A stretch of 64,000 bases of DNA from Woeseiaceae bacterium (GCA_024640315.1 JAHEFF010000006.1:10169-74168), one strand, 5' to 3'. Positions 31,608 to 58,942 are shown, counted from the first letter of the stretch. The notes: generated by a model not told the origin, from the sequence alone. A program made the numbers and translations.

Positions 31608-31627
31608 AACAGCCCTGAACCGCCTCT

Positions 31628-33860: not shown

Positions 33861-33864
33861 TGCA

Positions 33865-34671: not shown

Positions 34672-34678
34672 TGTGTTC

Positions 34679-35434: not shown

Positions 35435-35480
35435 GCGAAATGCTCCAGCTTGATGGTCGCCAAATGCCCTCTGAAGTTAG

Positions 35481-39330: not shown

Positions 39331-40632
39331 TTACTTACGTTCGTCAATGACACGAACCGCCTTGCCTTCCGATCGCGCCACTTCACCGGGTTCGCAGACG
39401 TCGATTGTGGCGCTAACACCGACATAGTCCTTGATACCTTTTTTCAGTTCTCTCGCAACCGCGGCAGAATCGGCATCGGCAGCCTCGACCGTTTTTTCAA
39501 CCTGCACCGTGATGACATCGAGCTGGCCGTCCCGGGCAACTCGAATCTGGTAGTGCGGAGCCAATGCGCTGACCGCCAGCACCCGCTCCTCGATCTGCGT
39601 CGGGAACACGTTAACGCCTCGGATGATCAGCATGTCATCACTGCGGCCTGTGATCTTGTCCATGCGGCGCATGGTGCGCGCAGTGCCCGGCAACAATCGC
39701 GTCAGATCGCGAGTGCGGTAACGAATGATCGGCAACGCCTCTTTAGACAGCGACGTAAAGACGAGCTCACCCATTTCGCCATCCGGCAAAGGCTCTCCGG
39801 TTTCCGGATTGATAATCTCGGGATAGAAATGATCTTCCCAGATCGTGGGCCCGTCCTTCGTTTCGATACATTCGTTGGCCACGCCCGGGCCGATGACTTC
39901 GGACAGGCCGTAGATATCGACTGCATCGAGGCCACAGCGTTCTTCGATTTCCTTGCGCATTGCATCACCCCAGGGTTCGGCACCAAAAATACCGACCTTG
40001 AGTGAGCACTTCGCACAATCCAGTCCCTGGCGCTCGAACTCGTCCGCAATGTTCAACATGTAAGAAGGTGTCACCATGATGATGTCGGGCTCGAAGTCAT
40101 GGATGAGCTGCACTTGCTTCGGCGTCTGCCCGCCCGACATCGGTATGACCATCGCCCCGAGTTTCTCTGCACCATAGTGCGCACCGAGACCACCGGTGAA
40201 GAGGCCATAACCGTACGCCACGTGAACTTTGTCGTCCGGACCACCGCCACTGGCGCGAATCGAGCGCGCAACGACGGTCGCCCAGGTCTCGATGTCATTC
40301 CTGGTGTAGCCGACTACTGTCGGCTTGCCGGTGGTTCCACTGGACGCGTGTATGCGAACAACGTCTCGCTGTGGAACGGCGAACATGCCAAACGGATAGG
40401 CCTGGCGCAGGTCATCTTTAACCGTGAAAGGAAACTTCGCGAGATCTTCGAGCGAACTGAGATCAGCTGGTGAAACGCCTGCCTGCTCACACTTGACGCG
40501 GTAAGGCGCAACGTTTTCGTAGGTATGTCGAATCGACCATTTCAGTCGTTCGAGCTGCAGGCCTCTTAATTCATCGACACTCGCTGTCTCAATGGGCTCG
40601 AGCTCGCCAGGATTGGGGACACGATTGACCAC
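39331..40632 (-). CDS. paaK: phenylacetate--CoA ligase family (arylacetate-CoA ligase)
   Basis: 433 aa. Contains SSGTTGKPTVVGYT, the YGLSE region and a C-terminal IDERK-type tail, which matches PaaK architecture. Confidence 0.9.
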   Translation of the reverse strand: MVNRVPNPGELEPIETASVDELRGLQLERLKWSIRHTYENVAPYRVKCEQAGVSPADLSSLEDLAKFPFTVKDDLRQAYPFGMFAVPQRDVVRIHASSGTTGKPTVVGYTRNDIETWATVVARSIRASGGGPDDKVHVAYGYGLFTGGLGAHYGAEKLGAMVIPMSGGQTPKQVQLIHDFEPDIIMVTPSYMLNIADEFERQGLDCAKCSLKVGIFGAEPWGDAMRKEIEERCGLDAVDIYGLSEVIGPGVANECIETKDGPTIWEDHFYPEIINPETGEPLPDGEMGELVFTSLSKEALPIIRYRTRDLTRLLPGTARTMRRMDKITGRSDDMLIIRGVNVFPTQIEERVLAVSALAPHYQIRVARDGQLDVITVQVEKTVEAADADSAAVARELKKGIKDYVGVSATIDVCEPGEVARSEGKAVRVIDERK

Positions 40633-43026: not shown

Positions 43027-43035
43027 TTTTTCAGG

Positions 43036-43068
43036 AAAAAAAAGGGTGCATTGCTGCACCCTTTTTAT
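43036..43068 (-). terminator. strong intrinsic (bidirectional-looking) terminator after the TBDR gene
   Basis: aaaaaaaa-gggtgca-ttgc-tgcaccc-ttttt. On the minus strand the GC stem is followed by eight T. It sits 21 nt after the TBDR stop, and its T-tract ends 9 nt before the acylase ATG. Confidence 0.7.
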
Positions 43069-43088
43069 ATACCAGCTTTCACCGTGGA

Positions 43089-45347
43089 TCAGAAGTTCAC
43101 CAATGCAGTGACACCGACTGTCATCGGATCACTCCAGACACCGATGGACCCCGGACCAATGCGATACGAGTGCTTGATATAAACCTCGTCTGTAAGGTTC
43201 TTGCCCCACAGCGTCAATTCATAGCGGTCCTCGGGAGATACCCAGCGAACGCTCGCATGGAGCAGGTTGGCTTCCTCGATAATTGTTTCGGTATTGGTCA
43301 CAAAGTCGACATGCTGATCGTCCGTATGACTGTACTGTGCGCGGAAATTCCAGTCGCCGTTGCGGGATGTCATGTCGTAGTTGGCGACGATATTGTAGGA
43401 GTTCTTCGGTGACTGGCGAAGCGGAAAACCGGAGAAATCCTGCGGTCCGGTAGCTGTGTTCAGCGTCAGGCCGCTAACTTCCGAATCGAGGTAAGCGTAG
43501 TTACCGGAGAGCGAGAAATTCTCTGTCGCGACCCAGTAGAAATCGACTTCGAGACCCTTGATGTCCGAGCTACCGATGTTAGTCGTTTGGAAAGTGCCGA
43601 ATGCCGACCCGGGTACCGGGCCAAAGCGCACAACCTGCAAATCGGTGTAGTCCATGAGGAACAACGACGCGTTGAGCCGCAAGGTGTTATCGGCGAAGTC
43701 ACCCTTCATGCCGATTTCGTAGTTGATGACGTCCTCTGGTTCAACCGGATTGCTTGCGGCCGCCTCGACACCCTGCGAGCCTGCAAACCCGCCGGACTTG
43801 TAACCCGTCGATACGGTACCGTAATACATCACGTCACCGCCCGGATTGAATTGCGCCGATACCATCGGAGAGAAATCCGTCCAGCTGTTCGAAGTCGCTA
43901 TGCCGAATGTTTCCGCGATAATACTGAGGCTGCCGCCGACACCCGCACATTCCGGGAAGTTGGGGAATCCCGCAGCCGCGCGGTCCGCCTCGTCCATACC
44001 GCAGTTGACTGCGGTCGCGGCATAGTCACGTTCATCCCGGGTCCAGCGTCCACCGAACGACAGTGTCCAGGCGTCATTGATGTCCCAGTTTGCATGACCA
44101 TAAGCCGCATAACTGGTGGTTTCGTTTTCGGTCTTTGTGTACTCATTGCCGAGCGTGGTCTGGCCATTCGCCGTCGTATAATTGGCAAGCTTGAACTGCT
44201 CGGGACGCCAGGTTTCTTCAGTCAAATAGTAGAGACCGCCCACCCACCGAACCGGGCCGTCGCCCGTCGATGTCCAGCGGAATTCCTGGGAGAATGTATC
44301 GATTTCCTCGTCGATGGCATCGACGACGTCGACACCCCAGTTGCCATTCGGTACGTCAGAGCCGCCTCCGGCGGGTGCGCCGATCGAAGGCATTTCCCAG
44401 CTCGACTTCGTGTTACGAACACCGGTGATCGTTGTCAATATGCCCGATTCGAAATCGATGTCACCCTGCAGGCTAAGGCCGGAGCCTTCGCGTTTTGAAA
44501 AACCAATCAATGGTGATGCGTTCGTGCCGGGTCGTCCTGCACCCAGGGCAGTTGCGGCACCGATGTAGTCGAAATTACCGTTTGCGATTGGAGCTCTGCC
44601 CATGTCGGTACGCTCGTCGTCCCAGGTATCGGCTGACATGAACCACTCAGACGAATCGAGTTCGAGAAGCAATTGCCCGCGAATGGACGTAAAGTCCTCG
44701 TCCTGCACATCCATTTCGCGATGCGTATTCCGGACAAACCCGTCATGCTCACGGTGATTCACAACGATCTTGCCTGAAAGCGTCTCCGTCAGCCCACCTG
44801 TGATCAGGCCCTGGTAACGCAGAATTCCTTCATTGCCGACTGTTACTGCAGCCTTGCCGCCTAATTCATTTTCCGGCCGCGAGGTGACGACATTGATGGC
44901 ACCTCCAACAGCATTTCGTCCGAACAGGGTTCCCTGCGGGCCCTTCAGGACTTCGACGCGGTCCAGGTCAAACAGGTCGAAGTTGATGCCTGCCTGGCGA
45001 CCGATGTAGACGCCGTCGAGAAACAAAGCAACGGAGTTATCAAGCCCGGCGCCATCGTCGACAGACCCGACACCACGCATCGAAATGTATGCCTGACCCG
45101 GTGCGAACTCGGCGAAAGCCATTCCGGGCGTATTGAGTGCGACGGTCGTAGCATCAAAAATACCTGCCGCTGCGAGCTCTTCCGAGCCGATCGCGGTTAC
45201 CGCGATTGGCACATCCTGGATACTCTCTTCGCGATGCGTCGCGGTTACGACGATTTCTTCGAGCTGCTGTGCCATGGTCGGCGCCGACAATGTCAACGTT
45301 GCAGCACATGCCATCGACAGGCCTGTTATCTGGTTCTTCCCAATCAT
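43089..45347 (-). CDS. TonB-dependent receptor
   Basis: 752 aa with signal peptide, plug motifs (EEIVVTATHREESIQDVP, RVEVLKGPQGTLFGRN) and a C-terminal aromatic residue (..LVNF). Confidence 0.92.
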   Translation of the reverse strand: MIGKNQITGLSMACAATLTLSAPTMAQQLEEIVVTATHREESIQDVPIAVTAIGSEELAAAGIFDATTVALNTPGMAFAEFAPGQAYISMRGVGSVDDGAGLDNSVALFLDGVYIGRQAGINFDLFDLDRVEVLKGPQGTLFGRNAVGGAINVVTSRPENELGGKAAVTVGNEGILRYQGLITGGLTETLSGKIVVNHREHDGFVRNTHREMDVQDEDFTSIRGQLLLELDSSEWFMSADTWDDERTDMGRAPIANGNFDYIGAATALGAGRPGTNASPLIGFSKREGSGLSLQGDIDFESGILTTITGVRNTKSSWEMPSIGAPAGGGSDVPNGNWGVDVVDAIDEEIDTFSQEFRWTSTGDGPVRWVGGLYYLTEETWRPEQFKLANYTTANGQTTLGNEYTKTENETTSYAAYGHANWDINDAWTLSFGGRWTRDERDYAATAVNCGMDEADRAAAGFPNFPECAGVGGSLSIIAETFGIATSNSWTDFSPMVSAQFNPGGDVMYYGTVSTGYKSGGFAGSQGVEAAASNPVEPEDVINYEIGMKGDFADNTLRLNASLFLMDYTDLQVVRFGPVPGSAFGTFQTTNIGSSDIKGLEVDFYWVATENFSLSGNYAYLDSEVSGLTLNTATGPQDFSGFPLRQSPKNSYNIVANYDMTSRNGDWNFRAQYSHTDDQHVDFVTNTETIIEEANLLHASVRWVSPEDRYELTLWGKNLTDEVYIKHSYRIGPGSIGVWSDPMTVGVTALVNF

Positions 45348-45421
45348 TCTATTACCCCGAAAACAATTTTGATTACAATTTGGACTGCCAATATTTAATA
45401 GTTAAAGCAATCGACCAAGAA

Positions 45422-45451
45422 ATGATACGGAATGCGTCAACGCGCAATCAA
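45422..45451 (-). promoter_or_regulatory. sigma70-type promoter candidate (TTGATT-N18-TATCAT) in the AT-rich 209-bp region upstream of the TBDR
   Basis: Hexamers read on the minus strand. This is the only clearly AT-rich intergenic stretch in this part of the window. Confidence 0.3.
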
Positions 45452-45556
45452 CTATGTATCAGATTGGAATCGACGCTTGACCTTAACTCGTTATTAATCA
45501 GTAAATTAGAATATAATTGTTGCAACTGTAACGACGCTGGTTACGCTTGTTTTGCG

Positions 45557-47032
45557 CTAGGGCCGCGCAGCGAACTCGAAAATCTGCTCGAGCGCCCTGG
45601 CGACCGCGAGCAGATCCCGGTCCGACCCTTCCGGGCCGTCGATTTCGATGCCCACGGGCAAGCCGCCAGCGGTCAGACCGATTGGCAGGCTGATTCCCGG
45701 CAATGCGGCAATACTCGCCGGATCCGTATTGTGAATGTAGGTCGGAAACGTCGGTACCTGTTCGCCATTCAGCTCGACCGATTCCTGGCTGCCTTCGATC
45801 GACCTGGCGGGCAACAAGGTCGTTGGAAAAATCATGCCATCGAGATCATTCTCATCGAAGTATTTGCGAAACATGCTGCGCATTTCTTCTCGTGCAGACA
45901 GGGCGTTCCTGTAAACCGGTTCCGGCACCTGCCCTTCGACGGTACCGAGCATTTGAAACAAGCCCTGTACATCGGGGCTTGCTGCAGCCGCACCTATCGC
46001 CGCGAAGTCCTTGCCGGTTTTGTACCGCTCAAGATAAGCCGGAAGATCAGCCACAACCTCGTACAAAGCGATCGGAAACGCACTTTGTGTATTTAGCCCG
46101 CCAACATCGCCAGGCTCCACGTCAACAAGCGTTACCCCGGCATCGCGCAACTTGCTGAGTGCCGCTTCGACGGCTGCTGACAGCGACTCATCGACATTTT
46201 CAAAGTAATAGTCTCGGGCAACACCGAGGCGTATATCCGTCGGCGATTTCATTGCAATGCTCGCGCCGCCCGGTTCGACGACCTGGTCCATAAGGATCAC
46301 GTCGGCGACATTCCTTGCGATGATTCCTACTGTGTCGCGGGTATGCGATATCGGCGTGACAGCGGACGAGTCATAGCGATCCGTGCTTGGGCGAAATCCG
46401 ACAACGCCCGTCAGCGCAGCCGGGATGCGCACCGAACCGCCGGTGTCGGTGCCAAGACCAGCCGGCGCCAGTCCGGCAGATATCGCAGCAGCCGTGCCAC
46501 CGCTGCTGCCGCCGGCAAACAAAGACGTATCGAACGGATTCGCAACGGCTCCATAAGCCGCGTTGTCGCTGGTGATACCGAATGCCAACTCGTGAAGATT
46601 GGTCTTGGCAAGAATGATTGCCCCGGCGTCGCGCAAAGCAGCGACCGCCGGACTATCGGCAGCGGGCGTAAAATCTGCCAATCCGGGCGTGCCGGCAGTA
46701 TTCTTCAGTCCTGCGACGTGAATATTGTCCTTTACGACCAACGGGATACCGTGCATCGGTCCCAGCACATTGCCCTGGCTTCGCATTTCGTCGAGTTCAA
46801 GCGCACGTTTCATCGCGCCGTCTGCATCGATGGTAATGAAAGCGTTCAAACCATCGGCCTCCGTCGCACGACGCAGTAGTTCAGTAACAATCGCAACGCT
46901 CGTGGTTTCACCCGCTCCCAGCATGGCAGCCAGCTCCGTTGCAGCCGGATAGTCGGGCACGGGTTTCATCACCTGTTCCTCGGCACAGCCGAACATCAGC
47001 GCTGCCATTGCCAGTAAAGAAATATTCTTCAT
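45557..47032 (-). CDS. amidase-signature family amidase, lipoprotein/periplasmic
   Basis: 491 aa. Lipobox LMFGC and amidase signature GGSSGGTAAAISAGLAPAGLGTDTGGSVRIPAA. Confidence 0.9.
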   Translation of the reverse strand: MKNISLLAMAALMFGCAEEQVMKPVPDYPAATELAAMLGAGETTSVAIVTELLRRATEADGLNAFITIDADGAMKRALELDEMRSQGNVLGPMHGIPLVVKDNIHVAGLKNTAGTPGLADFTPAADSPAVAALRDAGAIILAKTNLHELAFGITSDNAAYGAVANPFDTSLFAGGSSGGTAAAISAGLAPAGLGTDTGGSVRIPAALTGVVGFRPSTDRYDSSAVTPISHTRDTVGIIARNVADVILMDQVVEPGGASIAMKSPTDIRLGVARDYYFENVDESLSAAVEAALSKLRDAGVTLVDVEPGDVGGLNTQSAFPIALYEVVADLPAYLERYKTGKDFAAIGAAAASPDVQGLFQMLGTVEGQVPEPVYRNALSAREEMRSMFRKYFDENDLDGMIFPTTLLPARSIEGSQESVELNGEQVPTFPTYIHNTDPASIAALPGISLPIGLTAGGLPVGIEIDGPEGSDRDLLAVARALEQIFEFAARP

Positions 47033-48588
47033 GAATTCTCGCCTGTTTCACTTCTGACCAATTGCGCAGAATACGCAGCACGATCAATTTGTGCTCGAGC
47101 ACTATTGTCCGCGACGGATACCAGGATCGTCACAGCAAATGCAGCAGCAACTGAAAATAATGTGGGATAGGCGTACGGAAATATCGCCACCTTGTTACCC
47201 AGCACATTGACCCAGACCGTCGGGCTAAGGACCACCAGTACAATAACCACAACGAGCCCCGTCACGCCGCCTGCAACAGCACCCCGGGTCGTCAGGCCTC
47301 GCCAGAAAAGCGCAAGAAATATTGCCGGGAAATTAACACTCGCGGCAATAGCCAGCGCGATCGTTGATAACACTGCAACATTGACGTTCTTGAACAGAAC
47401 GCTCATGCCGATAGCAATTGCGCCAATAATGACGGTGGCAATTCGCGACACCCTGACTTCGGCGTCGTCGGAAATATCGCCCTTGCGGATGACGCGGGCA
47501 TAGAAATCATGGGCCACGGCGGCCGATGCAGACAGGAGAATTCCCGCAACGACGGCGAGAATAGTGGCGAATGCGACCGCCGCAATAAGACCAAAGAAGA
47601 TCTCGCCACCAACCAGCCGCGACAGGTAAATGGAAACCATGTTGACGCCACCACTGATCCGCCCTGCGTCGTCGACATACTCCGGCTGGCCAATCAGCAA
47701 CGCGATCGCTCCTATCCCGACGATCATGATTGCAGCTTGAAAATAACCAATAATAACAACCGCATAGCCAATGGATCGACGTGCCTGCCTGGCGTCGGGC
47801 ACAGTAAAAAAGCGCATCAACACGTGCGGCAGGCCCGCTGTTCCACAGATAAATGCCAGGCCCAGCGACACAACGCTGATCGGGTCACTGTAGAGAACCC
47901 CCGGCTGAAATATACCTTTGCCCCTCGGATGCGCGTCGCTGGCACTCCGGAAAAGCGAATCGATGCTAAAGCCGAACTTCGATAAGACGAGCACCAGCAG
48001 CACGGTACCTCCGGCGAGCAACAAAACCGCCTTGGTGACCTGAACCCATGTCGTCGCCAGCATGCCGCCGAACACCACGTAAATCGTCATCAGCGTGCCG
48101 ACAATCAGTACCGCACCCAAATAAGGAATATTAAAAAGCGTTTCGATCAGGGAGCCGGCTCCGACCATCTGCGCGATCAGGTACGGTATCGCCACCGTCA
48201 GCGTTCCGGCGGCTGCAAGCACTCGCATTCGTTCCGGCTGCAGGCGAAAAGCAACAACATCTGCAAATGTATAGCGACCGAGGTTGCGCATTCGGTCCGC
48301 AAACGCGAAAAGAATGAATGCCCAACTGACGGTAATCGCCACCGTGTAGAGCATCGCATCGGCGCCGCCAATGAATGCGAGGCCGGTCAGGCCGAGAAAC
48401 GTCGCCGCCGACATGAAATCGCCTGCCAGCGCGAGACCATTCTGGAAGCCGGTGATTTTTCCGCCCGCCGTGTAAAACTCACCGGCGGAATGCGTTTTCT
48501 TTGCGGCCCACCAGGTAATGAACAGACTCAGCGATACGAATGCAACGAATACGACGATCGCCGTGACGTTTGTGCCACCGCCGATCAT
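47029..48588 (-). CDS. sodium:solute symporter (ActP-like monocarboxylate permease)
   Basis: 519 aa, about 13 TM. FYTAGG...GLALAGDFMSAATFLG is typical of ActP-type SSS. ATGA coupling on both sides. Confidence 0.88.
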   Translation of the reverse strand: MIGGGTNVTAIVVFVAFVSLSLFITWWAAKKTHSAGEFYTAGGKITGFQNGLALAGDFMSAATFLGLTGLAFIGGADAMLYTVAITVSWAFILFAFADRMRNLGRYTFADVVAFRLQPERMRVLAAAGTLTVAIPYLIAQMVGAGSLIETLFNIPYLGAVLIVGTLMTIYVVFGGMLATTWVQVTKAVLLLAGGTVLLVLVLSKFGFSIDSLFRSASDAHPRGKGIFQPGVLYSDPISVVSLGLAFICGTAGLPHVLMRFFTVPDARQARRSIGYAVVIIGYFQAAIMIVGIGAIALLIGQPEYVDDAGRISGGVNMVSIYLSRLVGGEIFFGLIAAVAFATILAVVAGILLSASAAVAHDFYARVIRKGDISDDAEVRVSRIATVIIGAIAIGMSVLFKNVNVAVLSTIALAIAASVNFPAIFLALFWRGLTTRGAVAGGVTGLVVVIVLVVLSPTVWVNVLGNKVAIFPYAYPTLFSVAAAFAVTILVSVADNSARAQIDRAAYSAQLVRSETGENS

Positions 48589-48881
48589 CGGTGTTTATCC
48601 TGCTCGAGTGCCTCGTCCGCCTCAAGCCGATTCACCACACGGACATAGACCATTGAAAGCACGATTGACATCGCAATGATCAAAAACCCGACCGCCATGC
48701 CCCAGGGAAGCGCGATGCCCATGAAGGGTGCCGCATACGCTTCAGCGAAATAGATGCCGCCGATTCCCCAAACAAGGTAGGCGCCGATCAACAAACCGGA
48801 TAGTCCCCAGCGCCACCGGCTGCGGCGGACGAGAAGTCTCTGAAATTCCGGATCCTTAAGTAGTTCCGTCTCTCCGCCCAT
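48585..48881 (-). CDS. DUF485 (YjcH-like) inner-membrane protein
   Basis: 98 aa with two TM helices and FQRLLVRRSRWRW. It is the usual partner immediately upstream of ActP-type symporters. Confidence 0.85.
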   Translation of the reverse strand: MGGETELLKDPEFQRLLVRRSRWRWGLSGLLIGAYLVWGIGGIYFAEAYAAPFMGIALPWGMAVGFLIIAMSIVLSMVYVRVVNRLEADEALEQDKHR

Positions 48882-48894
48882 TGATCCCTCGCTT

Positions 48895-49341
48895 TTAGTT
48901 ATTTTTTGTCAGCTCGGCTGCCAGCAATGGTAGCTCATCGGCCAGGCTGTTGAGGATAAGTTCACGCGCTGCGGCGGGATCAGGTTCAGGATCGTCTCTT
49001 AACGAGGCCACTTCCGCTTCGGTAAACGGCTCAAACCGGTCGGGCAACTGACCCTCACTGTAAGTCTGTAACAACCAGTTCATCAGCTCGGCGATTTCGC
49101 TGTCACTCAAAGCAGACCTCGACACACCAGGCACCCGGATCAGGAAGTCCCTTCCCTCTTGCGAGTGAAGGAAGTAACCGGAGAAATCTTTAATCGGTGG
49201 CACCCTGCCTTCGAAGCCAGCGGCCTCCGGCAAATGACATCCCTGGCAATGCAACATGAAATTTACCTCTGCACGCCGGTCATCGGCGAGCGCACAGCTG
49301 CCCAGCAGCGCAACGAGGACTGTCAGTCGGGCTAGGGCCAC
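48895..49341 (-). CDS. monohaem c-type cytochrome (paralogue of 49332..49832)
   Basis: 148 aa, GTG start, signal peptide. Single CQGCH, followed by LPEAAGFEGRVPPI...GRDFLIRV, which is shared with the neighbouring cytochrome. Confidence 0.75.
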   Translation of the reverse strand: MALARLTVLVALLGSCALADDRRAEVNFMLHCQGCHLPEAAGFEGRVPPIKDFSGYFLHSQEGRDFLIRVPGVSRSALSDSEIAELMNWLLQTYSEGQLPDRFEPFTEAEVASLRDDPEPDPAAARELILNSLADELPLLAAELTKNN

Positions 49342-49832
49342 TTGTCGCCGTGCTTGCTGACCAACTCACTTCTGAGCTGACCGGCACCTGCCGGACTCTT
49401 CTGCGTAATGCCAGCCTGAACCTTTTCGACTTCTTCCGCGGCAAATGGCTCGATCCCGGATGAATCCGCATCATTTAGCTCGAAGACGACGTAGTTAAGC
49501 GCTGCCGCAATATCATCTGCTGACATTGCGCCCGTGTTGCCTGCCATAACACCGAAGTATTGCATGCCGTCGACCTTTATCGTGCCCATGAGACCGTAGG
49601 TCACCACGGTGATGAGATAGTCACGCCCACCCTCCAGTCCCGCAATCGTTGCCGCCCGATTCCTGATCGGCGGAAAAGCACCGGGCACGCCAGCGCCATC
49701 AGGCAGATGGCAAGCCGAGCACGTCGCGAAAGCGTCGGCGCTGTATTCGCCTGAACTTTCGTCCGCAACCGACAAGCGCCCGATCGAAATCGCAAGCCAG
49801 CCCGCTACTACAATCCAGAGAAAGCGTTTCAT
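49332..49832 (-). CDS. monohaem c-type cytochrome
   Basis: Trimmed to MKRFLWIVVAGWLAISIG (ATGA overlap with the light-chain stop). Single CSACH, followed by LPDGAGVPGAFPPI...GRDYLITV. Confidence 0.8.
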   Translation of the reverse strand: MKRFLWIVVAGWLAISIGRLSVADESSGEYSADAFATCSACHLPDGAGVPGAFPPIRNRAATIAGLEGGRDYLITVVTYGLMGTIKVDGMQYFGVMAGNTGAMSADDIAAALNYVVFELNDADSSGIEPFAAEEVEKVQAGITQKSPAGAGQLRSELVSKHGDKWP

Positions 49833-50353
49833 TCGTCGAGCGCCGCGCCGATGACAATCGCAGTCGAGCAGTGATAAGTATTGCTGCTCGTGCCAAGGCA
49901 CCAATTGAGGTCATTGGAAACGCGCGGGTTGTATACCGGCCGATCACCTTCATTCCGCTGACAGAGGCAGTTGCCGCAGGACGACTTACCGCAGCAGTCG
50001 TTGTACGAAATGATATAGCTCTTGCCATCCACCGGGTTCTCGCAGGTACCGATCCAGGTAATCGGTGACATTTCGGTTCCTGGTGGGCAGGAATTCATCG
50101 AACCACCGCAGCAGCCGCAAAGAAAACCATCGATCGCACAGTAGCGCCAGTACTCGCAGCTTGCAGGATCACCCTCTTCCCGGGGAGCAGGGTTTTCCTG
50201 CGATCGGGCAACGGGAAGAAGCGGTACGGTGACGGCACCACCGACAACCACGCCTGCCACTTTGCCAAGGAAACCGCGCCTCGACGTTTTTTGCGAAATA
50301 CTGCGTGCAGTATTTTCCGCTGTCTTATCAAGCCATCCATCCAGCCATTTCAT
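49829..50353 (-). CDS. mauA: TTQ-dependent amine dehydrogenase, light (small) subunit
   Basis: 174 aa. Tat-like leader SRRGFLGKVAG and Cys-rich core CEYWRYCAIDGFLCGCCGG..CPPGT..SPITWIGTCENP..DCCGK..NDLNWCLG. Both TTQ tryptophans are conserved relative to MauA/AauA as I recall them. Confidence 0.9.
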   Translation of the reverse strand: MKWLDGWLDKTAENTARSISQKTSRRGFLGKVAGVVVGGAVTVPLLPVARSQENPAPREEGDPASCEYWRYCAIDGFLCGCCGGSMNSCPPGTEMSPITWIGTCENPVDGKSYIISYNDCCGKSSCGNCLCQRNEGDRPVYNPRVSNDLNWCLGTSSNTYHCSTAIVIGAALDE

Positions 50354-50373
50354 GATTTCAGTCCTCAGTTCTC

Positions 50374-51510
50374 TTATTCTGCGCCGTACAGCATCAGCAC
50401 CGTTTCGGCGGCGAAGTTGTTGAGTGTTCTCTGGTACTCGCCACTTTTGGCAGTGTATATATCCAGTTCGAGATTGACATTCGTGACCAGCAACAAAGGA
50501 TCGTCATCGTTTGTCATTCCCATGCTGATGGCAGGCAGCTGCAATTCGATGCGGTCGACGCGACGTTTATTCTCGACGTCAAATACCCACACCTCCGTGC
50601 CCGGGTCCTTGTGCGACCCTTCGTAGCCATCAGGATGCATCAATACATACATCCGGCCGTCGGAATCTCTCTCGGTCACCTGGATGCCGCCGGGTCGCCA
50701 TCCCTCGTCACCGTCGCCAAGCAATGACCATTCCCGACCCACTTCCGGTTCCGAGCCATTCAGATCAACAGGAACGACGCGACCAAGAAAAGTCGGAAAA
50801 TAGGCAACACCATCAATCATTACCGCTTTCTCCATGATCGGATCGTTGTTCGCGTCGAAGAACACGCCGGTCCTGGCAGTTGATGCCTGCTCACCGTTTT
50901 CATCGAGTTGTACGCTCATCATTGAACCATCGGTGCACAACGACGCAAAAGCGCGTCCCGCCATCGGGTAAACCAGCGAGCAACCCGGAATTGGTATTTC
51001 CGCAAGGAACTCACGATTGACGATGTCGACCACTGAAACCGATGTCGCCGGCGTGAAGTTATAAATCAACGCCAGCTTTTCGTCGTCCACCAACTGGAGG
51101 TGGTAATTCGTCGGCATGGCGCTTGCACGTTTTGGCGGGATCACAACCTCGCCAATCGGCGCCAGATTGTCCTTGCCATAGATCGTCAGTACGTCCGTGC
51201 GTTCACCGCGCGACCCCCGTGAACGAAAGGTCTCGAGAATGTACATCTCGGGCCGGGTGGTCGCCTGGGTGAACTGCGCTATGAATGCGCCATTGAATAT
51301 GCCTTTAACGCGCGTCGCCGCATCATCCGATTCCGCATCAAGCACGTAAAACTTGCCATCGCTCATGTGAAAGAAAGCCACGTCGTGGGCAATAATCCAG
51401 TGTGCCGGCCATGGCGCCGGCAAGGTCTGAATCACGCCCGTTGGTTCGGGCTGAACCTGCCCGAACGCCGACGACGAGAATATCACTGTCAATAATATTA
51501 ATTGTTTCAT
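50374..51510 (-). CDS. mauB: TTQ-dependent amine dehydrogenase, heavy (large) subunit, 7-bladed propeller
   Basis: Has RGERTD, GWRPGG and overall colinearity with MauB. Start chosen at MKQLILLTVIFSSSAFG (51510, 4 nt after the ALDH stop). The track start 51528 is the alternative. Confidence 0.87.
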   Translation of the reverse strand: MKQLILLTVIFSSSAFGQVQPEPTGVIQTLPAPWPAHWIIAHDVAFFHMSDGKFYVLDAESDDAATRVKGIFNGAFIAQFTQATTRPEMYILETFRSRGSRGERTDVLTIYGKDNLAPIGEVVIPPKRASAMPTNYHLQLVDDEKLALIYNFTPATSVSVVDIVNREFLAEIPIPGCSLVYPMAGRAFASLCTDGSMMSVQLDENGEQASTARTGVFFDANNDPIMEKAVMIDGVAYFPTFLGRVVPVDLNGSEPEVGREWSLLGDGDEGWRPGGIQVTERDSDGRMYVLMHPDGYEGSHKDPGTEVWVFDVENKRRVDRIELQLPAISMGMTNDDDPLLLVTNVNLELDIYTAKSGEYQRTLNNFAAETVLMLYGAE

Positions 51511-51514
51511 GATG

Positions 51515-52933
51515 TTATGCCGCTGCATTGATTATCTTGATCGAGGTATATGCCGCCAGTCCCTCCTCGGCGAACTCAACACCAAGGCCCGAGCACTTAA
51601 TGCCGCCAAACGGAACATGCGGTTGAATCTCGGCATGCTTGTTGATGAATACGGTGCCCGCTTCAAGTCGCGCCGCGACCCTTGCACACTCATCCGCATC
51701 CGATCCCCATACCGATGCATCGAGACCGAAGTCGAGTGCATTTGCACGCTCGATCGCATCGTCGATATCGGTGTAGGTGATGATCGGCAGCACAGGCCCG
51801 AACTGTTCCTCGTCCACCAGGCGAACGCCGTCTGATATACCGGTTACGAAAGTCACCGGGTAGAAATAGTTGGGGCCTCCTGTCGGCTCGCCGCCTGTGA
51901 CACAGGTGCCGCCATTCGCCTTGGCGTCTTCGACCAATTCGATGACACGCTTGAACTGGCGCTCATTCTGCAGTGGCCCGAGAATGCTGCCCTCATCCAT
52001 GCCGTCGCCCATCGGAATATTCGCCGCAAACCCGGACAATGCTGCCACCGTCGCGTCGAGATCATCCTCGTGTACATAAAGTCGTTTCAGTGCCCCACAG
52101 GTCTGACCCGAGTTGATCATCGAGCCAAAGAACAGGCCTTCCGCAAACTTCGCGGGATCTTCCCCAGGCAGCAAGATGCCGGCATCGTTGCCGCCAAGCT
52201 CCAGTGTCACTGGCGTGACGCCTTCCGCCGCGCTGGCCATGACCTTTTTGCCGGTCGCGATGGAGCCGGTGAAGACGATCTTGTCGATACCTTCATGGGT
52301 CGTCAGTTCGGCACCAAGTTCGTCGCCACCGGAAACCACGTTGACCAGGCCCGGCGGCAAGACTTCGTTAAACAACTCAATCATTCGCAACGTGCTAAGC
52401 GGCGTGAACGGAGACGGTTTGATGACGACTGTGTTGCCCGTTCGAATCCCGGGAACGATATGCCAGATTGCGATGATCAGGGGCCAGTTCCACGGAGTGA
52501 TCGAGCCAACAACACCGAGCGGGACTCGTTTCTGGATCACATGCCGTTCATCACTGTCCTCGATGACTTTGTCGGGCAAACTCAATGAACCGGTATATCC
52601 CGCCCAACCGGCACAACCACCCATTTCGAACCTTGAACCAATGCCACCAAGCGGTTTGCCCTGCTCTTTGGTCAGTAACACCGCAAGCTCATCGGCGTGC
52701 TCGGTACAAACGCCGGCAATCGCATTGCAGGCGTTCACGCGTTCTTCTTCGCTGGAAAAGCGCCAGGACTTGTAAGCCTTGGCTGCTGCAGCAATTGCCT
52801 TGTCCAGGTGTTTTTTTGTGCCTACAGGTGCCTGACCGACGACCTCTTCTGTGTTTGCGGGGTTTCGAACATCCACGTAGGAATCCGCGGTTACGGTCTC
52901 CCCACCAATTGTCATCTCGTATTTCTTACTCAT
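51515..52933 (-). CDS. NAD(P)+-dependent aldehyde dehydrogenase
   Basis: 472 aa. Contains FTGS...GKKV, LELGGND and GQTCGALKRLYV (catalytic Cys). Confidence 0.92.
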   Translation of the reverse strand: MSKKYEMTIGGETVTADSYVDVRNPANTEEVVGQAPVGTKKHLDKAIAAAAKAYKSWRFSSEEERVNACNAIAGVCTEHADELAVLLTKEQGKPLGGIGSRFEMGGCAGWAGYTGSLSLPDKVIEDSDERHVIQKRVPLGVVGSITPWNWPLIIAIWHIVPGIRTGNTVVIKPSPFTPLSTLRMIELFNEVLPPGLVNVVSGGDELGAELTTHEGIDKIVFTGSIATGKKVMASAAEGVTPVTLELGGNDAGILLPGEDPAKFAEGLFFGSMINSGQTCGALKRLYVHEDDLDATVAALSGFAANIPMGDGMDEGSILGPLQNERQFKRVIELVEDAKANGGTCVTGGEPTGGPNYFYPVTFVTGISDGVRLVDEEQFGPVLPIITYTDIDDAIERANALDFGLDASVWGSDADECARVAARLEAGTVFINKHAEIQPHVPFGGIKCSGLGVEFAEEGLAAYTSIKIINAAA

Positions 52934-52946
52934 TTCGCACCTCGTT

Positions 52947-53960
52947 TCAGTGATTCAAATAATCTTCAGCAAGCTCGCAGGCTGCCGCCAGGATCATCGG
53001 CGTTAGCTCTCTCGCTGTTTCCGTCTCTTGGCGGGTATGTACCCACCCAATGTATGTAAAGCCGCGCGCCAGGAAAAAGAGCGGCAGCATTTCCAGTTCT
53101 TCATCGGTCAGTCGCCGACGTTTTCTGTAGCCGGCAATCAGCGCATCTTTTGCCTGCTGGAAGTACGATTCCTCTTGAATGAAATAGAGGGATGTCGCAA
53201 GTTCAAAAAGGTGCCAACCGAAACCGGCATCATCGAAATCGATCAGGCGCACTTCGTTGCCATCGACCATGACATTTTCCGGCGCGAAATCCGCATGGAT
53301 CATGCTGTAGTTATCCGGTGATTTCGCCAGGGCACTGAGATCCTGAAAGACCCGGTCGCGGCCGCGTTGCAGCATTTCGGTCTCTGATTTCGATGCGGCC
53401 GCCAGGTTCCAGAATTGCCCCCAGAAGGGATTCTCGCCTGCCAGTCCTTCGGCATCCCAGGCGTGGCGGACAAATCCCTCCGGCAACCGCCATGACGTTG
53501 CCTGGTTGTGAACTCTCGCCGCAAGTTCGCCAATGGCGCCGTAAGTCGATTCGACCTCGGCGATATCCGCGACGCCCTCTTCAACCGAGCCGAGTTGCTT
53601 GCCGTCGATCCATTCGAACAGGTCGATTTGCAGCGTGCCCGGCAGAGTGTCGCCCGAATAGTCGACAAACAGATCGCCCGACAGCGCCGGAATGACATTC
53701 GGCACCAGGACACCTGATTCCGACAGCGCCTGCATCCATTGCAGCTCGGAGCGCAATTCGTCGTCGGTGTGGTAGCCGTGCCGGTGCAAACGCAGCGCCG
53801 CCCTGAAGTCGTCCTTTTCCACCTTGAATACCGCATTTTCGCGATGCTTGATCAGCTTGAGCGAAGCACCGCTGAGACCCCATTGTTGCAGCGCGTCGTG
53901 GCCGGCAAGTTCGAGTCGTCTCACCCGTTGCTCAGGCGTCAGTTTAAAGAAATCAGTCAT
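52947..53960 (-). CDS. APH/homoserine-kinase-type-II fold small-molecule kinase (amino-alcohol kinase candidate)
   Basis: 337 aa. Catalytic loop HADFAPENV (HxDxxxxN) and metal-binding IDFDD. Confidence 0.85.
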   Translation of the reverse strand: MTDFFKLTPEQRVRRLELAGHDALQQWGLSGASLKLIKHRENAVFKVEKDDFRAALRLHRHGYHTDDELRSELQWMQALSESGVLVPNVIPALSGDLFVDYSGDTLPGTLQIDLFEWIDGKQLGSVEEGVADIAEVESTYGAIGELAARVHNQATSWRLPEGFVRHAWDAEGLAGENPFWGQFWNLAAASKSETEMLQRGRDRVFQDLSALAKSPDNYSMIHADFAPENVMVDGNEVRLIDFDDAGFGWHLFELATSLYFIQEESYFQQAKDALIAGYRKRRRLTDEELEMLPLFFLARGFTYIGWVHTRQETETARELTPMILAAACELAEDYLNH

Positions 53961-55237
53961 ACCGCCGCCATCACTTCGTCGAGAGTTGCTGCCAGAAAAT
54001 CCGCGTTATCTTTGGAGAAACACAGTGGCGGTCGTAGCTTCAGCACGTTGTCGTGCTCACCTATCTTGCTCATCAGCACACCCTTGTGGCGCATTGCATT
54101 GACGATAGTCCGCGCCTTGTCTGCCGCTGGCTCCTTAGTCTCGCGATCGTTGACCAGGTCTATACCGAAGAACAGGCCACTCCCGCGAACGTCGCCGATC
54201 ATGTCGTGCCGGCTTTGGAGTTCTTTGAATTTTTCAAGCACGTAGTCACCGACTTCAGCTGCATTGGCGACAAGTCCTTCGTCGTCGATGACGTCCAGAA
54301 CTGCCATTGCTACGGCGCAGGAAACAGGGTTGCCGCCGAACGTATTGAAATACATCTCGTGACGTCGATAGTTGTCGAGCAATTCTCCCCTTGCGACCAC
54401 CCCGGAGACAGGGTGGCCGGCACCCATGGGTTTACCGAGTGTGACAATATCCGGAATAACGCCGCTTTCTTCATAGCCCCACCAGCGCCCGGTACGACCG
54501 AAACCCGACTGGACTTCGTCCGCGATATAAACGCCACCGGCCGCGTGAACGTAGTCGATCGCTTTGCGCATATAGCCGTCCGGAATGTTTGGCAAGCCTT
54601 CGTTCGCAAAAATAGGACAGGCAATCATGCCTGCGAGCTTGATTCCGTTGGCTTCCAGGGAGTTGATCGCTGTTTCGATCTCGTCGGCATACACATCGGC
54701 CAGCGCTTCGCCTTCCAGGCCGTCGGCCGCACGATATGAATCGGGCCAGGACACCATGCGAATATTGTCGCCATAGCCACCAACCGGTTCGAATATGGAG
54801 CTGAGCTGCGCAACTGCCGTTGTATTGCCGTGGTAGGTCGCGTTGGTACAAATAAAACCCTCACCACCTGAATTTACCCGGGCGATCCGCAGAGCAAGAT
54901 CGTTTGCTTCACTACCCGTGCAAGCGATCGCGACGCGATCGAGGCCGTCATCAAACTTGTTGAGCAGACATTCTGCGTAGTCGAGTATGTTTTCGTGCAA
55001 ATAACGCGTATGCGTGTTGAGCGTACCTGCCTGCGCGCAAAGCGCTCCGACAACACGTGGATGGCAATGACCGACACAGGGCACATTGTTATAGCAGTCG
55101 AGATATTTGTTTCCGTCCGCATCGTGCAACCAGACGCCCTCGCCCCTGACGAGGTGAACCGGGGCGTCATAGAACAGGGGGTTGCCCGGCCCGAGGAGCC
55201 GTTCCCGTCGCTCGACCAGTTCCTGCACATTCGTCAT
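53957..55237 (-). CDS. class-III aminotransferase-fold PLP enzyme, AGXT2L-like (O-phospho-amino-alcohol phospho-lyase candidate)
   Basis: Trimmed to MTNVQELVERR; the 68-aa Arg-rich extension in the track overlaps the SDR gene. Has IADEVQSGFGRTG and PDIVTLGKPMGAGHP (PLP lysine). Confidence 0.87.
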   Translation of the reverse strand: MTNVQELVERRERLLGPGNPLFYDAPVHLVRGEGVWLHDADGNKYLDCYNNVPCVGHCHPRVVGALCAQAGTLNTHTRYLHENILDYAECLLNKFDDGLDRVAIACTGSEANDLALRIARVNSGGEGFICTNATYHGNTTAVAQLSSIFEPVGGYGDNIRMVSWPDSYRAADGLEGEALADVYADEIETAINSLEANGIKLAGMIACPIFANEGLPNIPDGYMRKAIDYVHAAGGVYIADEVQSGFGRTGRWWGYEESGVIPDIVTLGKPMGAGHPVSGVVARGELLDNYRRHEMYFNTFGGNPVSCAVAMAVLDVIDDEGLVANAAEVGDYVLEKFKELQSRHDMIGDVRGSGLFFGIDLVNDRETKEPAADKARTIVNAMRHKGVLMSKIGEHDNVLKLRPPLCFSKDNADFLAATLDEVMAAV

Positions 55238-55238
55238 G

Positions 55239-56051
55239 TCAGGAAGATCCCTCCAGGTCCTTGATGCCTTCCATTTCTTCAAGAAACACCGGGCTCTCCG
55301 GCAAGGTTGAACCGCCGTCGATACAAATCGTCTGCCCGGTGATGTAACGCGCCTCGTCGCTGGCGAGATAGAGCATGCAATAAGCGATGTCCTCCGGCGC
55401 ACCCATGTAGCCGCTCGGAATATATTTCGCCATCTGTGCAAGTCCTTCCTCGTCCGCCAGCAATTCCATCGCAGCGGTCCGGATATACCCCGGCTCTACA
55501 CCGTTGACGGTTATGTTCTCGCGCGCCAGCTCCAGCGCCGCCGTTTTAATGAATGCGTTCATGCCACCTTTGGATGCGGCATAGTAGGAAGTGCCCGGCA
55601 TCGCCACTCGCGGACCGGTAACAGACGACGTAAACAGGAGCCGGCCACCGCCACGTTTCCTGAAATGCGGGATCACGGCTTTTGAAAACCGGAAGCAGGC
55701 TTTCAGGTTCACCGACAACACGGTTTCGAGATCCTCTTCGTTGTAGGAATCGACCGGTCCGCCGAGGAACGATGCCGCGTTGTGCAACATGATGTCGACA
55801 CCGCCCCATTTGTCGACGGTTTCAGCTACGGCGCGGTCGACGCTCGCGACATCACCGATATCGATACCACACAATTCCGCTTCGCCACCGGACGCGCGAA
55901 TGTCATCGACAGTTCGCTGTCCGTTTTCCGGTGTGCGATTGACCACCATGACCCTGGCCCCGGCGCTGGCAAAAACCCGCGCAATTCCGGCGCCGATGCC
56001 CTGACCGGAACCCGTCACGATCGCTATTTTTCCACTGAGATCTGCAAACAT
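55239..56051 (-). CDS. short-chain dehydrogenase/reductase
   Basis: Trimmed to MFADLSGKIAIVTGSGQGIG. Has NAAS and YAASKGG. Confidence 0.87.
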   Translation of the reverse strand: MFADLSGKIAIVTGSGQGIGAGIARVFASAGARVMVVNRTPENGQRTVDDIRASGGEAELCGIDIGDVASVDRAVAETVDKWGGVDIMLHNAASFLGGPVDSYNEEDLETVLSVNLKACFRFSKAVIPHFRKRGGGRLLFTSSVTGPRVAMPGTSYYAASKGGMNAFIKTAALELARENITVNGVEPGYIRTAAMELLADEEGLAQMAKYIPSGYMGAPEDIAYCMLYLASDEARYITGQTICIDGGSTLPESPVFLEEMEGIKDLEGSS

Positions 56052-56055
56052 ACTG

Positions 56056-57252
56056 TTAATCCGTAACGGCGGCGGCCGCACCAAATGTTTTTGACTGCAT
56101 CAGTACCGGCGGCAATATCAATAGCAGGCTGAGAACGAAGAGGCCTGCACCGAACCAGTTGACGTTGATGTACTCGCCTTCCGAAATGACGGATGCGGCA
56201 AGTGCGGGACCAATCGCAAGTCCGACCATCTGCATGGCGACGGCATACACAACAACCCTGCCACGCCGGTCGAAACTGGCCATCGCGCCGAGGAGAAAGG
56301 GATGGGTCATGTTCCAAAGGAAGTTATAGACACCGACAGCCAGTGCAAAGACGATAAATTCGAAGGTGCCGAAAAGAAAATACAGACAAAGTGCACCGCC
56401 AAGAATACCGACTGTCAATGGAATCGAACGACCGACCTGATGGGCAATGACTGCCGCAAGTAATGCGCCACCGATGCCGGCAAATTGCGAAATCATGAGC
56501 CCGTTGGCAACCGCCTGCTCGCTCAGGCCGCCGGAAACGCCGATGAGGAATAAATACGCCCAGACAACGCCCTGCGCCATGAAATACGCGAGCATTGCGA
56601 ATAGCGCCAGGCCTTTCATTTGCGGCGACAGGTTGACCGCGTCCGCCTCCACATGTGCGTCGACCTCACCCGATACCGGGAAGTTTCTGATGAATGGAAC
56701 TGCCGCGAGCGGAAACAGCGCGAAGAACCAGATCACACCGTTAAAGCCGAACAGCTCATACGCGGTTGGCATTGCCCAAAGCACAATAGCGCCATAGGTG
56801 AGCACCCACATAATCAGAAAGCCAAAGTTTCGATCGGGGTTTTTGGTTAAACCCACAGCAGCAAAACTTAGTGACACAAGACTGCCGGCACCCAGCCCTG
56901 CGATGAACCTGAGTGCAACAAAAGCGTTGAGGTCAGTGCTCACCGTGCAGAGAAGGTTTGCCAGAAACATCACAAGCAGCGACCAGAAAACGACTTTTCG
57001 CCAGTTCACACGATGCGCCACAAAAGTCATCAGTATGGTCGTTGCGGCGAGGCCAAACATTTCTGCCGATGCGACATACCCTGCGCCCTGATCGTCGAAT
57101 CCGAGATACACGACCAGGCCCTGCACAAATCCCGGCTGCACGATAAATACTTCAGGCGCGATGACACCGACGAGGAACATGCTGAACAAGGCGCCTCGTG
57201 AATTGAGGTCCACCGGGTGGTCGTTAGCGAAAACCCTGTTAAGTATCGCCAT
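56056..57252 (-). CDS. MFS transporter
   Basis: 398 aa, about 12 TM. Paralogue of 61417..62589 (shared QPGF[VI]QGLV.YLG and SAEMFGLA). Confidence 0.85.
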   Translation of the reverse strand: MAILNRVFANDHPVDLNSRGALFSMFLVGVIAPEVFIVQPGFVQGLVVYLGFDDQGAGYVASAEMFGLAATTILMTFVAHRVNWRKVVFWSLLVMFLANLLCTVSTDLNAFVALRFIAGLGAGSLVSLSFAAVGLTKNPDRNFGFLIMWVLTYGAIVLWAMPTAYELFGFNGVIWFFALFPLAAVPFIRNFPVSGEVDAHVEADAVNLSPQMKGLALFAMLAYFMAQGVVWAYLFLIGVSGGLSEQAVANGLMISQFAGIGGALLAAVIAHQVGRSIPLTVGILGGALCLYFLFGTFEFIVFALAVGVYNFLWNMTHPFLLGAMASFDRRGRVVVYAVAMQMVGLAIGPALAASVISEGEYINVNWFGAGLFVLSLLLILPPVLMQSKTFGAAAAVTD

Positions 57253-57256
57253 CGTC

Positions 57257-58942
57257 CTAGTAGCCGCTTACCCAGTCGGGAATAATCACGTTGTTCGCCT
57301 TTGAATACTCTTCCCACATTGCTTTTAACGCGGCAACGGTCTCCGGATGATCAAGCGAGACGTCATTCGATTCGCCCGGGTCTTCATCAATATTAAAAAG
57401 CTGCCAGTCGTCATTGCCATATGGCGCAGGCATGTGAACGAGTTTCCATTCGCCGCGTCGGATAACGCGTTTGCCAAATAGTTCCATCCCCGTCACCCGA
57501 TCCCTGGCAGCCGAACTCTCACCGCGCAGAATTGGCAGGAACGATTGCCCTGTCATCGGCTCGATGGGTCGACCCTGGTATTCATTGCCCGGATGCCTGA
57601 CGTCGGCGATTTCGAGAATTGTTGGCGTAATATCCTTGATGAATACGAATTCATCGACGAGTTCCGGCTCCCCGACCAGGCTCGGTAAACGGACAAATGC
57701 GGCAACACGAGTACCACCTTCTGTCGGGAATGCTTTGTGCAAGCGAAATGCTGGTGAGCCCGCATTCGCCCAGTTCGGCCCGTACAGAACATAGGAGCCC
57801 GGTCGTCCCATCGCCTCGTAACTAAAGTCATGGGTCGAATCTATTGTCTTGCGGATATCCGGAAACAGATCCATTGACCAGGTTTCATCGAGATCATGGC
57901 CCTCCGGACCATTGTCGGACAGGAAAATGATCACCGTATTGTCGAGTTTGCCGCTCTCTTCGAGGTAATCGATCAGGCGCCCTGTATGCCGATCGACTTC
58001 GTTGATCATCGCGGCATAGATCTCCATCGCTCGCATTTCTGTCTTTTGCTGTGCAGTGGTTAGCTCGTCCCACGGCCTTTCCTTGGGCGAACGAGCGCTG
58101 CGACGTGCATCAGCCGGGACAATTCCCATTTCCTTCAGGCGTTCGAGACGGGCATCTGCAATCGCGTCATAGCCTGAATCGTATCTCCCCGCCTGCCGCG
58201 CAATCGCATCATCCGGCGCCTGCAGCGGCCAGTGTGGTGCGGTAAACGACAGATAGCCGAAGAAAGGTTGCTCCGGCTCACTGTCATCACTCAGGTACCG
58301 GATCATCTGATCAACGTAGTATTCTGTTGAATAGTCAAAATCGCCCGGCAAGGCGTCCAGTTTGACGCCGTCTTGCGAATAGTTTGCCTTGACGTCGGGC
58401 GAAGGCGCGTAGGCCGGCCGCATGTCCCCGAAGTGACTCGCGCCACCGGTATCAAGAACGAAAGATCGCTCAAAACCGCGATACGCAGCACCTTTGCCAA
58501 CACCGGATCCGAGGTGCCACTTGCCTGTCATGTAGGTGCGGTAGCCGGCGTCTTGCAGCAACGTTGGCAACGAAACAACGCGCTCGTTCAGAAAACCTTC
58601 ATAGCCTGGCTGCCCTGTCTGATTGGGAGCCAGTTCCTCGAGCATATTTCCAAGCCCGGCAAGATGTGAATCAACACCGGTCAGCAGCATCGACCGACTT
58701 GGTGAGCATGTGGACGCGGCATGAAAGTTGGTAAATCGAATGCCTTCAAGTGCGAGACGATCGAGATTTGGCGTTGCGATCTCGCCACCGAAGCTGCCGA
58801 GATCAGAAAAACCCATATCGTCGACAACGATGAGCAATATGTTGGGCCGATCCGGAGCGGCGTCAGGCGATACCGTTTCCGGGCCCTCGCCCATACAGGC
58901 GGCCAGAAGAAGAATGATCGATAACTGAATTAGACGTCGCAT
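57257..58942 (-). CDS. arylsulfatase (Cys-type), lipoprotein
   Basis: 561 aa. Lipobox ILLLAAC, NILLIVVDDMGFSDLG, the FGly motif STCSPSRSMLLTG, and GKWHLG. Confidence 0.9.
   Translation of the reverse strand: MRRLIQLSIILLLAACMGEGPETVSPDAAPDRPNILLIVVDDMGFSDLGSFGGEIATPNLDRLALEGIRFTNFHAASTCSPSRSMLLTGVDSHLAGLGNMLEELAPNQTGQPGYEGFLNERVVSLPTLLQDAGYRTYMTGKWHLGSGVGKGAAYRGFERSFVLDTGGASHFGDMRPAYAPSPDVKANYSQDGVKLDALPGDFDYSTEYYVDQMIRYLSDDSEPEQPFFGYLSFTAPHWPLQAPDDAIARQAGRYDSGYDAIADARLERLKEMGIVPADARRSARSPKERPWDELTTAQQKTEMRAMEIYAAMINEVDRHTGRLIDYLEESGKLDNTVIIFLSDNGPEGHDLDETWSMDLFPDIRKTIDSTHDFSYEAMGRPGSYVLYGPNWANAGSPAFRLHKAFPTEGGTRVAAFVRLPSLVGEPELVDEFVFIKDITPTILEIADVRHPGNEYQGRPIEPMTGQSFLPILRGESSAARDRVTGMELFGKRVIRRGEWKLVHMPAPYGNDDWQLFNIDEDPGESNDVSLDHPETVAALKAMWEEYSKANNVIIPDWVSGY

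Follow-up and report, generated by a model that had tools for sequence, protein, structure and literature searches.

The closest described relatives of the locus considered here are the mau cluster of methylamine dehydrogenase (MADH; Paracoccus/Methylorubrum type) and the aau cluster of the aromatic-amine dehydrogenase (AADH) of Alcaligenes faecalis, both of which encode a heavy and a light subunit carrying the cofactor tryptophan tryptophylquinone (TTQ). Mutants of mauD and mauE have established that both accessory genes are essential for MADH. The A. faecalis locus runs in the order Aldedh (an aldehyde dehydrogenase gene), orf-1, aauB, aauE, aauD, aauA, orf-2 (encoding a 166-aa CAGCH cytochrome), AraC, an unassigned open reading frame (ORF) and hemE; neither a CCP_MauG domain nor a copper protein was found within 10 kb on either side of the aau cluster. 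The locus under study lies in a stretch of 64,000 nucleotides (the window) from a marine Woeseiaceae gammaproteobacterium (GCA_024640315.1, JAHEFF010000006.1:10169-74168). We consider that it is probably an aau-type (aromatic/aralkylamine) TTQ operon, linked to arylethylamine breakdown, whose mauE and mauD genes have been relocated and are supplied in trans. It is a gene-order variant of the aau-type system, not a new kind of system. The genes of the dehydrogenase operon all lie on the minus strand in one tight run, and its core is as follows (positions counted from the first letter of the window):

50374..51510, minus strand: heavy (propeller) subunit of the TTQ amine dehydrogenase, 378 aa, with a Sec-type signal peptide (PF06433, E 1.2e-32)
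49829..50353, minus strand: light subunit precursor of the TTQ amine dehydrogenase, 174 aa, with a twin-arginine (Tat) leader (PF02975, E 4.3e-53)
49332..49832, minus strand: cyt1, a monohaem class-I cytochrome c of Thermus c552 type, His/Met, 166 aa, CSACH
48895..49341, minus strand: cyt2, an orf-2-type monohaem cytochrome, 148 aa, CQGCH

The gene junctions are close. The heavy-chain ORF extends over 50374..51528, with a likely start at the Met at 51510 that gives 378 aa, as called in L001; a spacer of 20 nt, with GAGGA ahead of the light-chain ATG, separates the heavy from the light gene; the light-chain stop and the cyt1 start overlap in ATGA; and a 10-nt overlap joins the cyt1 stop to a GTG start of cyt2. 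The initial annotation, made from the sequence alone, had described this spacing, the ATGA coupling and two paralogous cytochromes, and each of these was recovered, the paralogy at 25% identity (E 3.6e-12).

Both subunits exceed the curated cut-offs of their families: the light chain scores 179 bits against PF02975 (Me-amine-dh_L; cut-off 25) and the heavy chain 113.7 bits against PF06433 (Me-amine-dh_H; cut-off 21). Both fall below the NCBIfam equivalog cut-offs for MADH itself (TIGR02658, large subunit, 124.9 vs 454.45; TIGR02659, small subunit, 162.9 vs 196.85). Compared with solved structures, the light chain matches AADH at 161 bits and MADH at 136 bits, aligning without gaps to AADH 2agl_D (E 2.1e-46), and the top PDB match of the heavy chain is AADH 2h3x_A (181 bits; MADH reaches 109 bits). 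The light chain also keeps all 14 Cys of AADH, compared with 12 in the MADH light chain. In a heavy-chain tree rooted on MADH sequences (200 bootstraps), A. faecalis AauB, all marine relatives and the window sequence form one clade. The earlier impression that the light chain stands nearer to AauA than to MauA is thus borne out, and it extends to the heavy chain; both subunits are assigned by these comparisons to the aau lineage.

The residues expected of a functional enzyme are in place. W100 and W151 align to both TTQ tryptophans of A. faecalis AauA, D119 corresponds to the catalytic Asp128-beta and D75 to Asp84-beta, and the Thr172-beta position is occupied by Ser (S163). Alignment revealed no loss of either tryptophan, in agreement with the initial annotation, which had also recognised the TTQ family membership and the Cys-rich 174-aa light chain with a Tat-like leader; the leader scores 17.6 bits against the TAT signal model (cut-off 16.7). 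The locus is accordingly classed as a periplasmic TTQ-family amine dehydrogenase operon in which the cofactor itself is predicted, and the enzyme belongs, as far as its sequence goes, to the AADH clade, with its catalytic residues intact and its genes in translational coupling with those of two exported c-type cytochromes. With the mau cluster it shares homologous TTQ subunits and the Tat-type light-chain leader. Identity to the A. faecalis enzyme is 31% for the heavy chain (AauB) and 48% for the full-length light chain, and the heavy chain is 54% identical to that of another Woeseiaceae locus (L099). Because the heavy chain is only 31% identical to characterised AauB, any substrate preference has to be drawn from gene context.

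These data also bear on whether the locus is a decaying or non-functional aau remnant. Such a reading could appeal to the missing pair of accessory genes, mauD and mauE, which are essential in the MADH system (bioRxiv 10.64898/2026.03.05.709764). Yet all the ORFs are intact and tightly coupled; every Cys, W100, W151, D75 and the catalytic Asp are invariant in 27 relatives (65-89% identity); and an identical light chain occurs in four independent metagenome assemblies. We therefore regard decay as extremely improbable. The window is of Woeseiaceae origin, at 91% identity to a Woeseiaceae metagenome-assembled genome (MAG).

Genes for maturation and electron transfer were sought across the window, where the initial annotation had seen no MauE-like membrane ORF, no MauD beside the dehydrogenase, no dihaem ORF of MauG size and no cupredoxin. 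A Pfam scan of all 53 large ORFs detected no MauE, CCP_MauG or copper-binding domain. Hidden Markov models (HMMs) of MauE, MauD (built from 62 sequences) and MauG searched the six-frame translation of the 64 kb with every filter disabled and gave no significant match (best scores MauE E 0.0045, MauD E 0.35, MauG E 0.17), and azurin and amicyanin queries matched nothing in the window. The same procedures were applied to a positive control of 14 MADH-type loci, each at least 12 kb long (among L103-L128). MauE and MauD were recovered in all 14, as was a dihaem ORF of 349-421 aa (the one scanned, in L109, matched PF03150 at E 2e-46), and amicyanin was recovered in 11. Since these procedures recover the helper genes in the MADH controls, the absences from the window are real. 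The controls also differ from the window in arrangement: in 14/14, MauE and MauD lie between the subunit genes and a dihaem MauG-type gene follows 1.3-1.8 kb downstream, and in 11/14 amicyanin comes immediately after mauA. Three MADH-type loci (L113, L114 and L115) have MauE, MauD and MauG and show no detectable amicyanin-like ORF after mauA.

Three candidates in the window were considered and set aside. A redoxin at 1474..2052 was tried as a distant MauD and reached E 0.35 and 6 bits against the MauD HMM. The 58-aa match to the MauE HMM at 45855..46028 (E 0.0045, 13 bits) lies in another frame within an amidase gene. The one further ORF with CxxCH motifs besides cyt1 and cyt2, at 6138..8516, is an octahaem protein and was rejected as a MauG substitute: it carries eight CxxCH in c7-type domains together with TPR domains and lies 41 kb away. 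In its own right it is a 792-aa protein in which eight c7/c554-type haem motifs are fused to C-terminal TPR repeats, and it is unrelated to the dehydrogenase operon.

How unusual these absences are can be judged from a sample of about 99 aau-type loci. No MauG homologue, dihaem ORF of MauG size or cupredoxin lies near any of them. A monohaem cytochrome directly follows the light-chain gene in nearly all of them, and in most an orf-2-type gene follows the light-chain gene, often overlapping it; the post-light-chain cytochrome is ancestral in the aau family. Since all or nearly all of these loci, that of A. faecalis included, share these features, a dedicated cytochrome, like the lack of mauG and of a cupredoxin, represents the norm of the aau lineage and is nothing peculiar to this locus. 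The window indeed shares with the A. faecalis cluster its subunit clade, 14-Cys light chain and catalytic residues, as well as the upstream aldehyde dehydrogenase (found upstream of aauB in both A. faecalis and Photobacterium), the downstream orf-2-type cytochrome and the absence of mauG and cupredoxin from the cluster. It differs in having no aauE or aauD between the subunit genes or elsewhere in the 64 kb, in its extra c552-type cyt1, in lacking the porin-like orf-1 gene (Phenol_MetA_deg), and in operon additions comprising a kinase and aminotransferase-fold pair, a DUF485-ActP pair and an amidase. As regards the characterised order, the missing mauE and mauD between the subunit genes are the sole departure. 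The 'stripped-down' system proposed in the initial annotation is overstated: in mauG, the cupredoxin and the dedicated cytochrome the locus resembles its family, and what is left comes down to relocation of mauE and mauD. With no linked MauE, MauD or MauG, cofactor maturation must depend on unlinked factors, as that annotation had supposed and as it must in every aau-type system.

The two cytochromes are paralogues of different character. The profile of the cyt1 family (16 homologues) matches Thermus thermophilus c552 (PDB 1C52, 2FWL) from end to end (E 1.5e-41), and Met96 is invariant in a GVMxG motif; with this full-length match and the invariant Met, cyt1 is an ordinary His/Met electron carrier. 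T. thermophilus c552 is a soluble donor to terminal oxidases. The cyt2 protein is of the orf-2 type, at 32% identity to both A. faecalis orf-2 (L091:10660-11160; E 1.2e-22) and Photobacterium ORF155 (E 2.2e-27), and cyt1 is the more distant paralogue. Its LLGSC motif suggests that cyt2 may be a lipoprotein. The cyt2 family shares the c552 fold in part: the cyt2/orf-2 profile (43 homologues) matches c552 at E 3e-20 in two pieces, c552 residues 10-49 and 70-128, and about 20 residues (c552 positions 50-69) are missing from orf-2-type cytochromes, cyt2 included. Met69, the axial ligand of T. thermophilus c552, lies within that gap. Across the aau-type loci there are 89 distinct orf-2-type cytochromes, and neither a Met nor a second His is conserved among them. 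Because the Met69 loop is skipped and no Met or His is conserved, the sixth haem ligand in these proteins is either undefined or missing, and the orf-2-type cytochrome is best described, from its profile, as a Thermus c552-like fold minus the axial-Met loop. In most BEDA loci, which have mauE and/or mauD between the subunit genes, the second gene after the light chain encodes a dihaem c4-like protein instead.

These features invite the proposal that the Met-loop-less cyt2 stands in for MauG as the oxidant that finishes TTQ, in which case the cytochromes would be maturation factors as much as electron acceptors. The absence of MauG near about 99 aau-type loci, set against its presence in 14/14 MADH loci, is compatible with this, as are the frequent position of the orf-2-type gene after (and often overlapping) the light-chain gene and the lack of a conserved sixth ligand. 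The case is, however, one of correlation alone; cyt2 has the fold of an electron-transfer cytochrome; tandem pairs of adjacent subunit genes occur without an orf-2-type copy of their own; and a CCP/MauG-family gene may lie unlinked elsewhere in these genomes. We consider this route very improbable. A related and broader proposal, that aau-type enzymes generally finish TTQ without MauG by means of the orf-2-type cytochrome, in which an open haem site may exist, and that the light chain of this locus in addition folds without MauE and MauD, we also rate as quite improbable.

The position of mauE and mauD was examined by scoring gene order in 94 heavy-light pairs of the aau-type sample. MauE and/or MauD lie between the subunit genes in 68, and in the remaining 26 the subunit genes are adjacent (BA). 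The adjacent pairs are scattered over several places of the heavy-chain tree, suggesting several apparent origins, and many have a cluster with both genes either directly in tandem or elsewhere in their genome (L022, L037, L046, L048, L050, L073, L068/L023, L078/L060). Among the tandem loci, L037, L046, L048, L050 and L073 have a BA pair followed by a BEDA cluster, the first pair having no MauE/MauD and cytochrome of its own and apparently sharing those of the second. In L041 and L071 one BA pair follows another, and the locus contains no MauE or MauD.

The window falls in a clade made up entirely of BA loci (bootstrap 67%), within which the Woeseiaceae crown is recovered at 98% (196/200) and whose sister is a BEDA locus (L017). 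Members of this clade nonetheless possess the pair. In L014, L095 and L097, MauD and MauE genes lie directly after the cytochromes in convergent orientation; on the L094/L096 contig they are about 12 kb away; and in the Woeseiaceae MAG locus L099 they lie 4.7 kb downstream (MauD 297 bits, CPVC; MauE 87 bits, CGC). In gene content the L099 operon comes close to that of the window; it has a single orf-2-type cytochrome and lacks cyt1. Two further Woeseiaceae MAGs (L092/L093) carry MauE-MauD directly after a gene for a 796-aa FAD/FMN oxidoreductase (a flavoprotein), in an aromatic-acid island that is syntenic with window positions 21421..40632 at 66-88% amino-acid identity. The relatives thus keep a DsbB/DsbA-like pair dedicated to the dehydrogenase operon, with CGC in MauE and CPVC in MauD; the pair stands apart from the structural genes, once appended to a paa operon, and it is absent from the window. 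In the window's clade, then, mauE and mauD are detached from the operon and not lost, as the relocated pairs of L014, L094-L097 and L099 demonstrate; their absence from between the subunit genes is a trait of this clade that arose when the pair moved out of the operon.

One of these arrangements deserves separate description. In L095 (1631-10603), a paaABCDE/hydratase/thiolase operon that converges on the TTQ operon has MauE-MauD as its final two genes, a placement that ties the light-chain maturation genes to phenylacetate catabolism.

Several observations weigh against the interpretation offered above. The 48.9 kb to one side of the dehydrogenase genes contain neither mauE nor mauD, and the same is true of the 12.5 kb to their other side. 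The pair is likewise not found within 10 kb on either side in the crown relatives L009-L013. The slot that holds MauE-MauD in L092/L093 is occupied in the window by genes for the alpha and beta subunits of a Rieske dioxygenase (19609..21406), at which point the synteny ends (compared slots: window 19609-23811 and L092:6957-10612). As for electron transfer, A. faecalis AADH uses azurin, any function of orf-2 is putative, and cyt2, which is without the usual Met ligand, may be something other than a simple electron carrier.

The first three of these points, and with them the failure to detect MauE or MauD anywhere in the 64 kb, form the case for the main rival explanation, namely that mauE and mauD have truly been lost and that housekeeping DsbA/DsbB makes the seven disulfides of the light chain. 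Outright loss is possible because the Rieske dioxygenase fills the syntenic slot. A 2026 preprint moreover reports that MauE is able to replace DsbB in Escherichia coli (bioRxiv 10.64898/2026.03.05.709764); the two systems would therefore be functionally equivalent oxidants, which makes a Dsb-dependent route plausible. Set against this, all the better-sampled loci of this clade have a dedicated MauE-MauD pair at a distance of 0.1-12 kb, MauD orthologues of 60-65% identity are annotated in Woeseiaceae MAGs, and BA pairs elsewhere usually stand beside, or in a genome with, a cluster that has both genes. Two extensions of the search are neutral: a further 0.5 kb gained past the window edge contains no MauE or MauD, all the contigs known to carry the light chain or the edge-located AraC protein being 5 kb or shorter, and the 3.86-Mb contig that carries L009 showed no MauD among the best 120 of 7919 MauD homologues, too few to decide absence. 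On balance we regard loss as unlikely, if still a serious contender. Relocation is preferred: most likely, this genome keeps mauE and mauD beyond the 64 kb, from where they would serve the 14-Cys light chain in trans.

The operon may work as follows. A Sec-exported propeller subunit and a Tat-leader light subunit would assemble into a periplasmic alpha2-beta2 enzyme, in which the TTQ derived from Trp100 and Trp151 would oxidise a primary amine to its aldehyde and ammonia; the likeliest substrate is an arylethylamine. Electrons would leave one at a time to cyt2 and/or cyt1 and thence to a terminal oxidase. The aldehyde would be oxidised to the acid (an arylacetate) by the adjacent cytoplasmic aldehyde dehydrogenase, and the acid could then join the arylacetate-CoA genes found further along the window.

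The characterised mau and aauBEDA orders are evidently not universal, about one quarter of heavy-light pairs being adjacent in this marine aau-type sample, and MauE/MauD can work at a distance, once as the last genes of a phenylacetate operon. A detached MauE/MauD pair agrees with the recent proposal that MauE is an oxidase of general, DsbB-like function. The aau-type family to which the locus belongs is very large and uncharacterised, with more than 5000 protein clusters and a relative in at least 597 species genomes, mostly of marine Gammaproteobacteria, and it probably feeds arylethylamines into arylacetate catabolism. How TTQ is completed without a linked MauG is a question for the whole aau lineage and not for this locus in particular. 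A more interesting lead than the locus itself is that in this lineage MauG is never linked and a Met-less c552-like cytochrome is the conserved neighbour.

The remaining genes of the operon flank the core on both sides:

53957..55237, minus strand: class-III aminotransferase-fold protein (PF00202, E 6.6e-76), resembling the aminotransferase half of the fused PRK06148/PRK06149 models
52947..53960, minus strand: APH-family small-molecule kinase (PF01636, E 4.8e-26), partner of the aminotransferase-fold protein
51515..52933, minus strand: cytoplasmic NAD(P)-dependent aldehyde dehydrogenase (PF00171, E 7.6e-132)
48585..48881, minus strand: DUF485 membrane protein (PF04341, E 8.1e-13), the usual partner of ActP-type symporters
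47029..48588, minus strand: sodium:solute symporter of ActP or monocarboxylate type (PF00474, E 1.4e-96; ActP subfamily model 705.7 bits, cut-off 750)
45557..47032, minus strand: amidase of indoleacetamide-hydrolase type with a lipoprotein-like signal peptide (NF005688, 569.7 bits, cut-off 532; PF01425, E 7.6e-98)

The top NCBIfam matches of the aldehyde dehydrogenase are aminobutyraldehyde and phenylacetaldehyde dehydrogenases, every one below its cut-off. For the aminotransferase-fold gene the longest ORF reaches 55441, with a likely start at Met69 (55237). The products of this gene and the kinase gene (52947-55237) each look like one half of the fused PRK06148/PRK06149 proteins, and the pair presumably acts as a kinase and phospho-lyase turning an amino alcohol into an aldehyde; it accompanies the dehydrogenase genes in L010, L011, L095-L097 and L099. 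The position of DUF485 is kept in L010, L011, L013 and L099. A promoter and terminator scan of 43000..57500 returned nothing exceeding shuffled expectation.

Beyond the operon, the window encodes a PaaK-like ligase, IorAB-like genes and a penicillin-amidase homologue, in addition to the indoleacetamide-hydrolase-type amidase. Taken together with the ActP-type symporter, these neighbours fit a funnel to arylacetyl-CoA, and the arylethylamine preference proposed above would follow from this context, namely the catabolic genes of the window and the paa operon beside the L095 cluster. The penicillin-amidase homologue (40645-43059) and the amidase with the lipoprotein signal (45557-47032) flank a TonB-dependent receptor, an arrangement which suggests that arylacetates may be released from amides in the periplasm beside amine oxidation.

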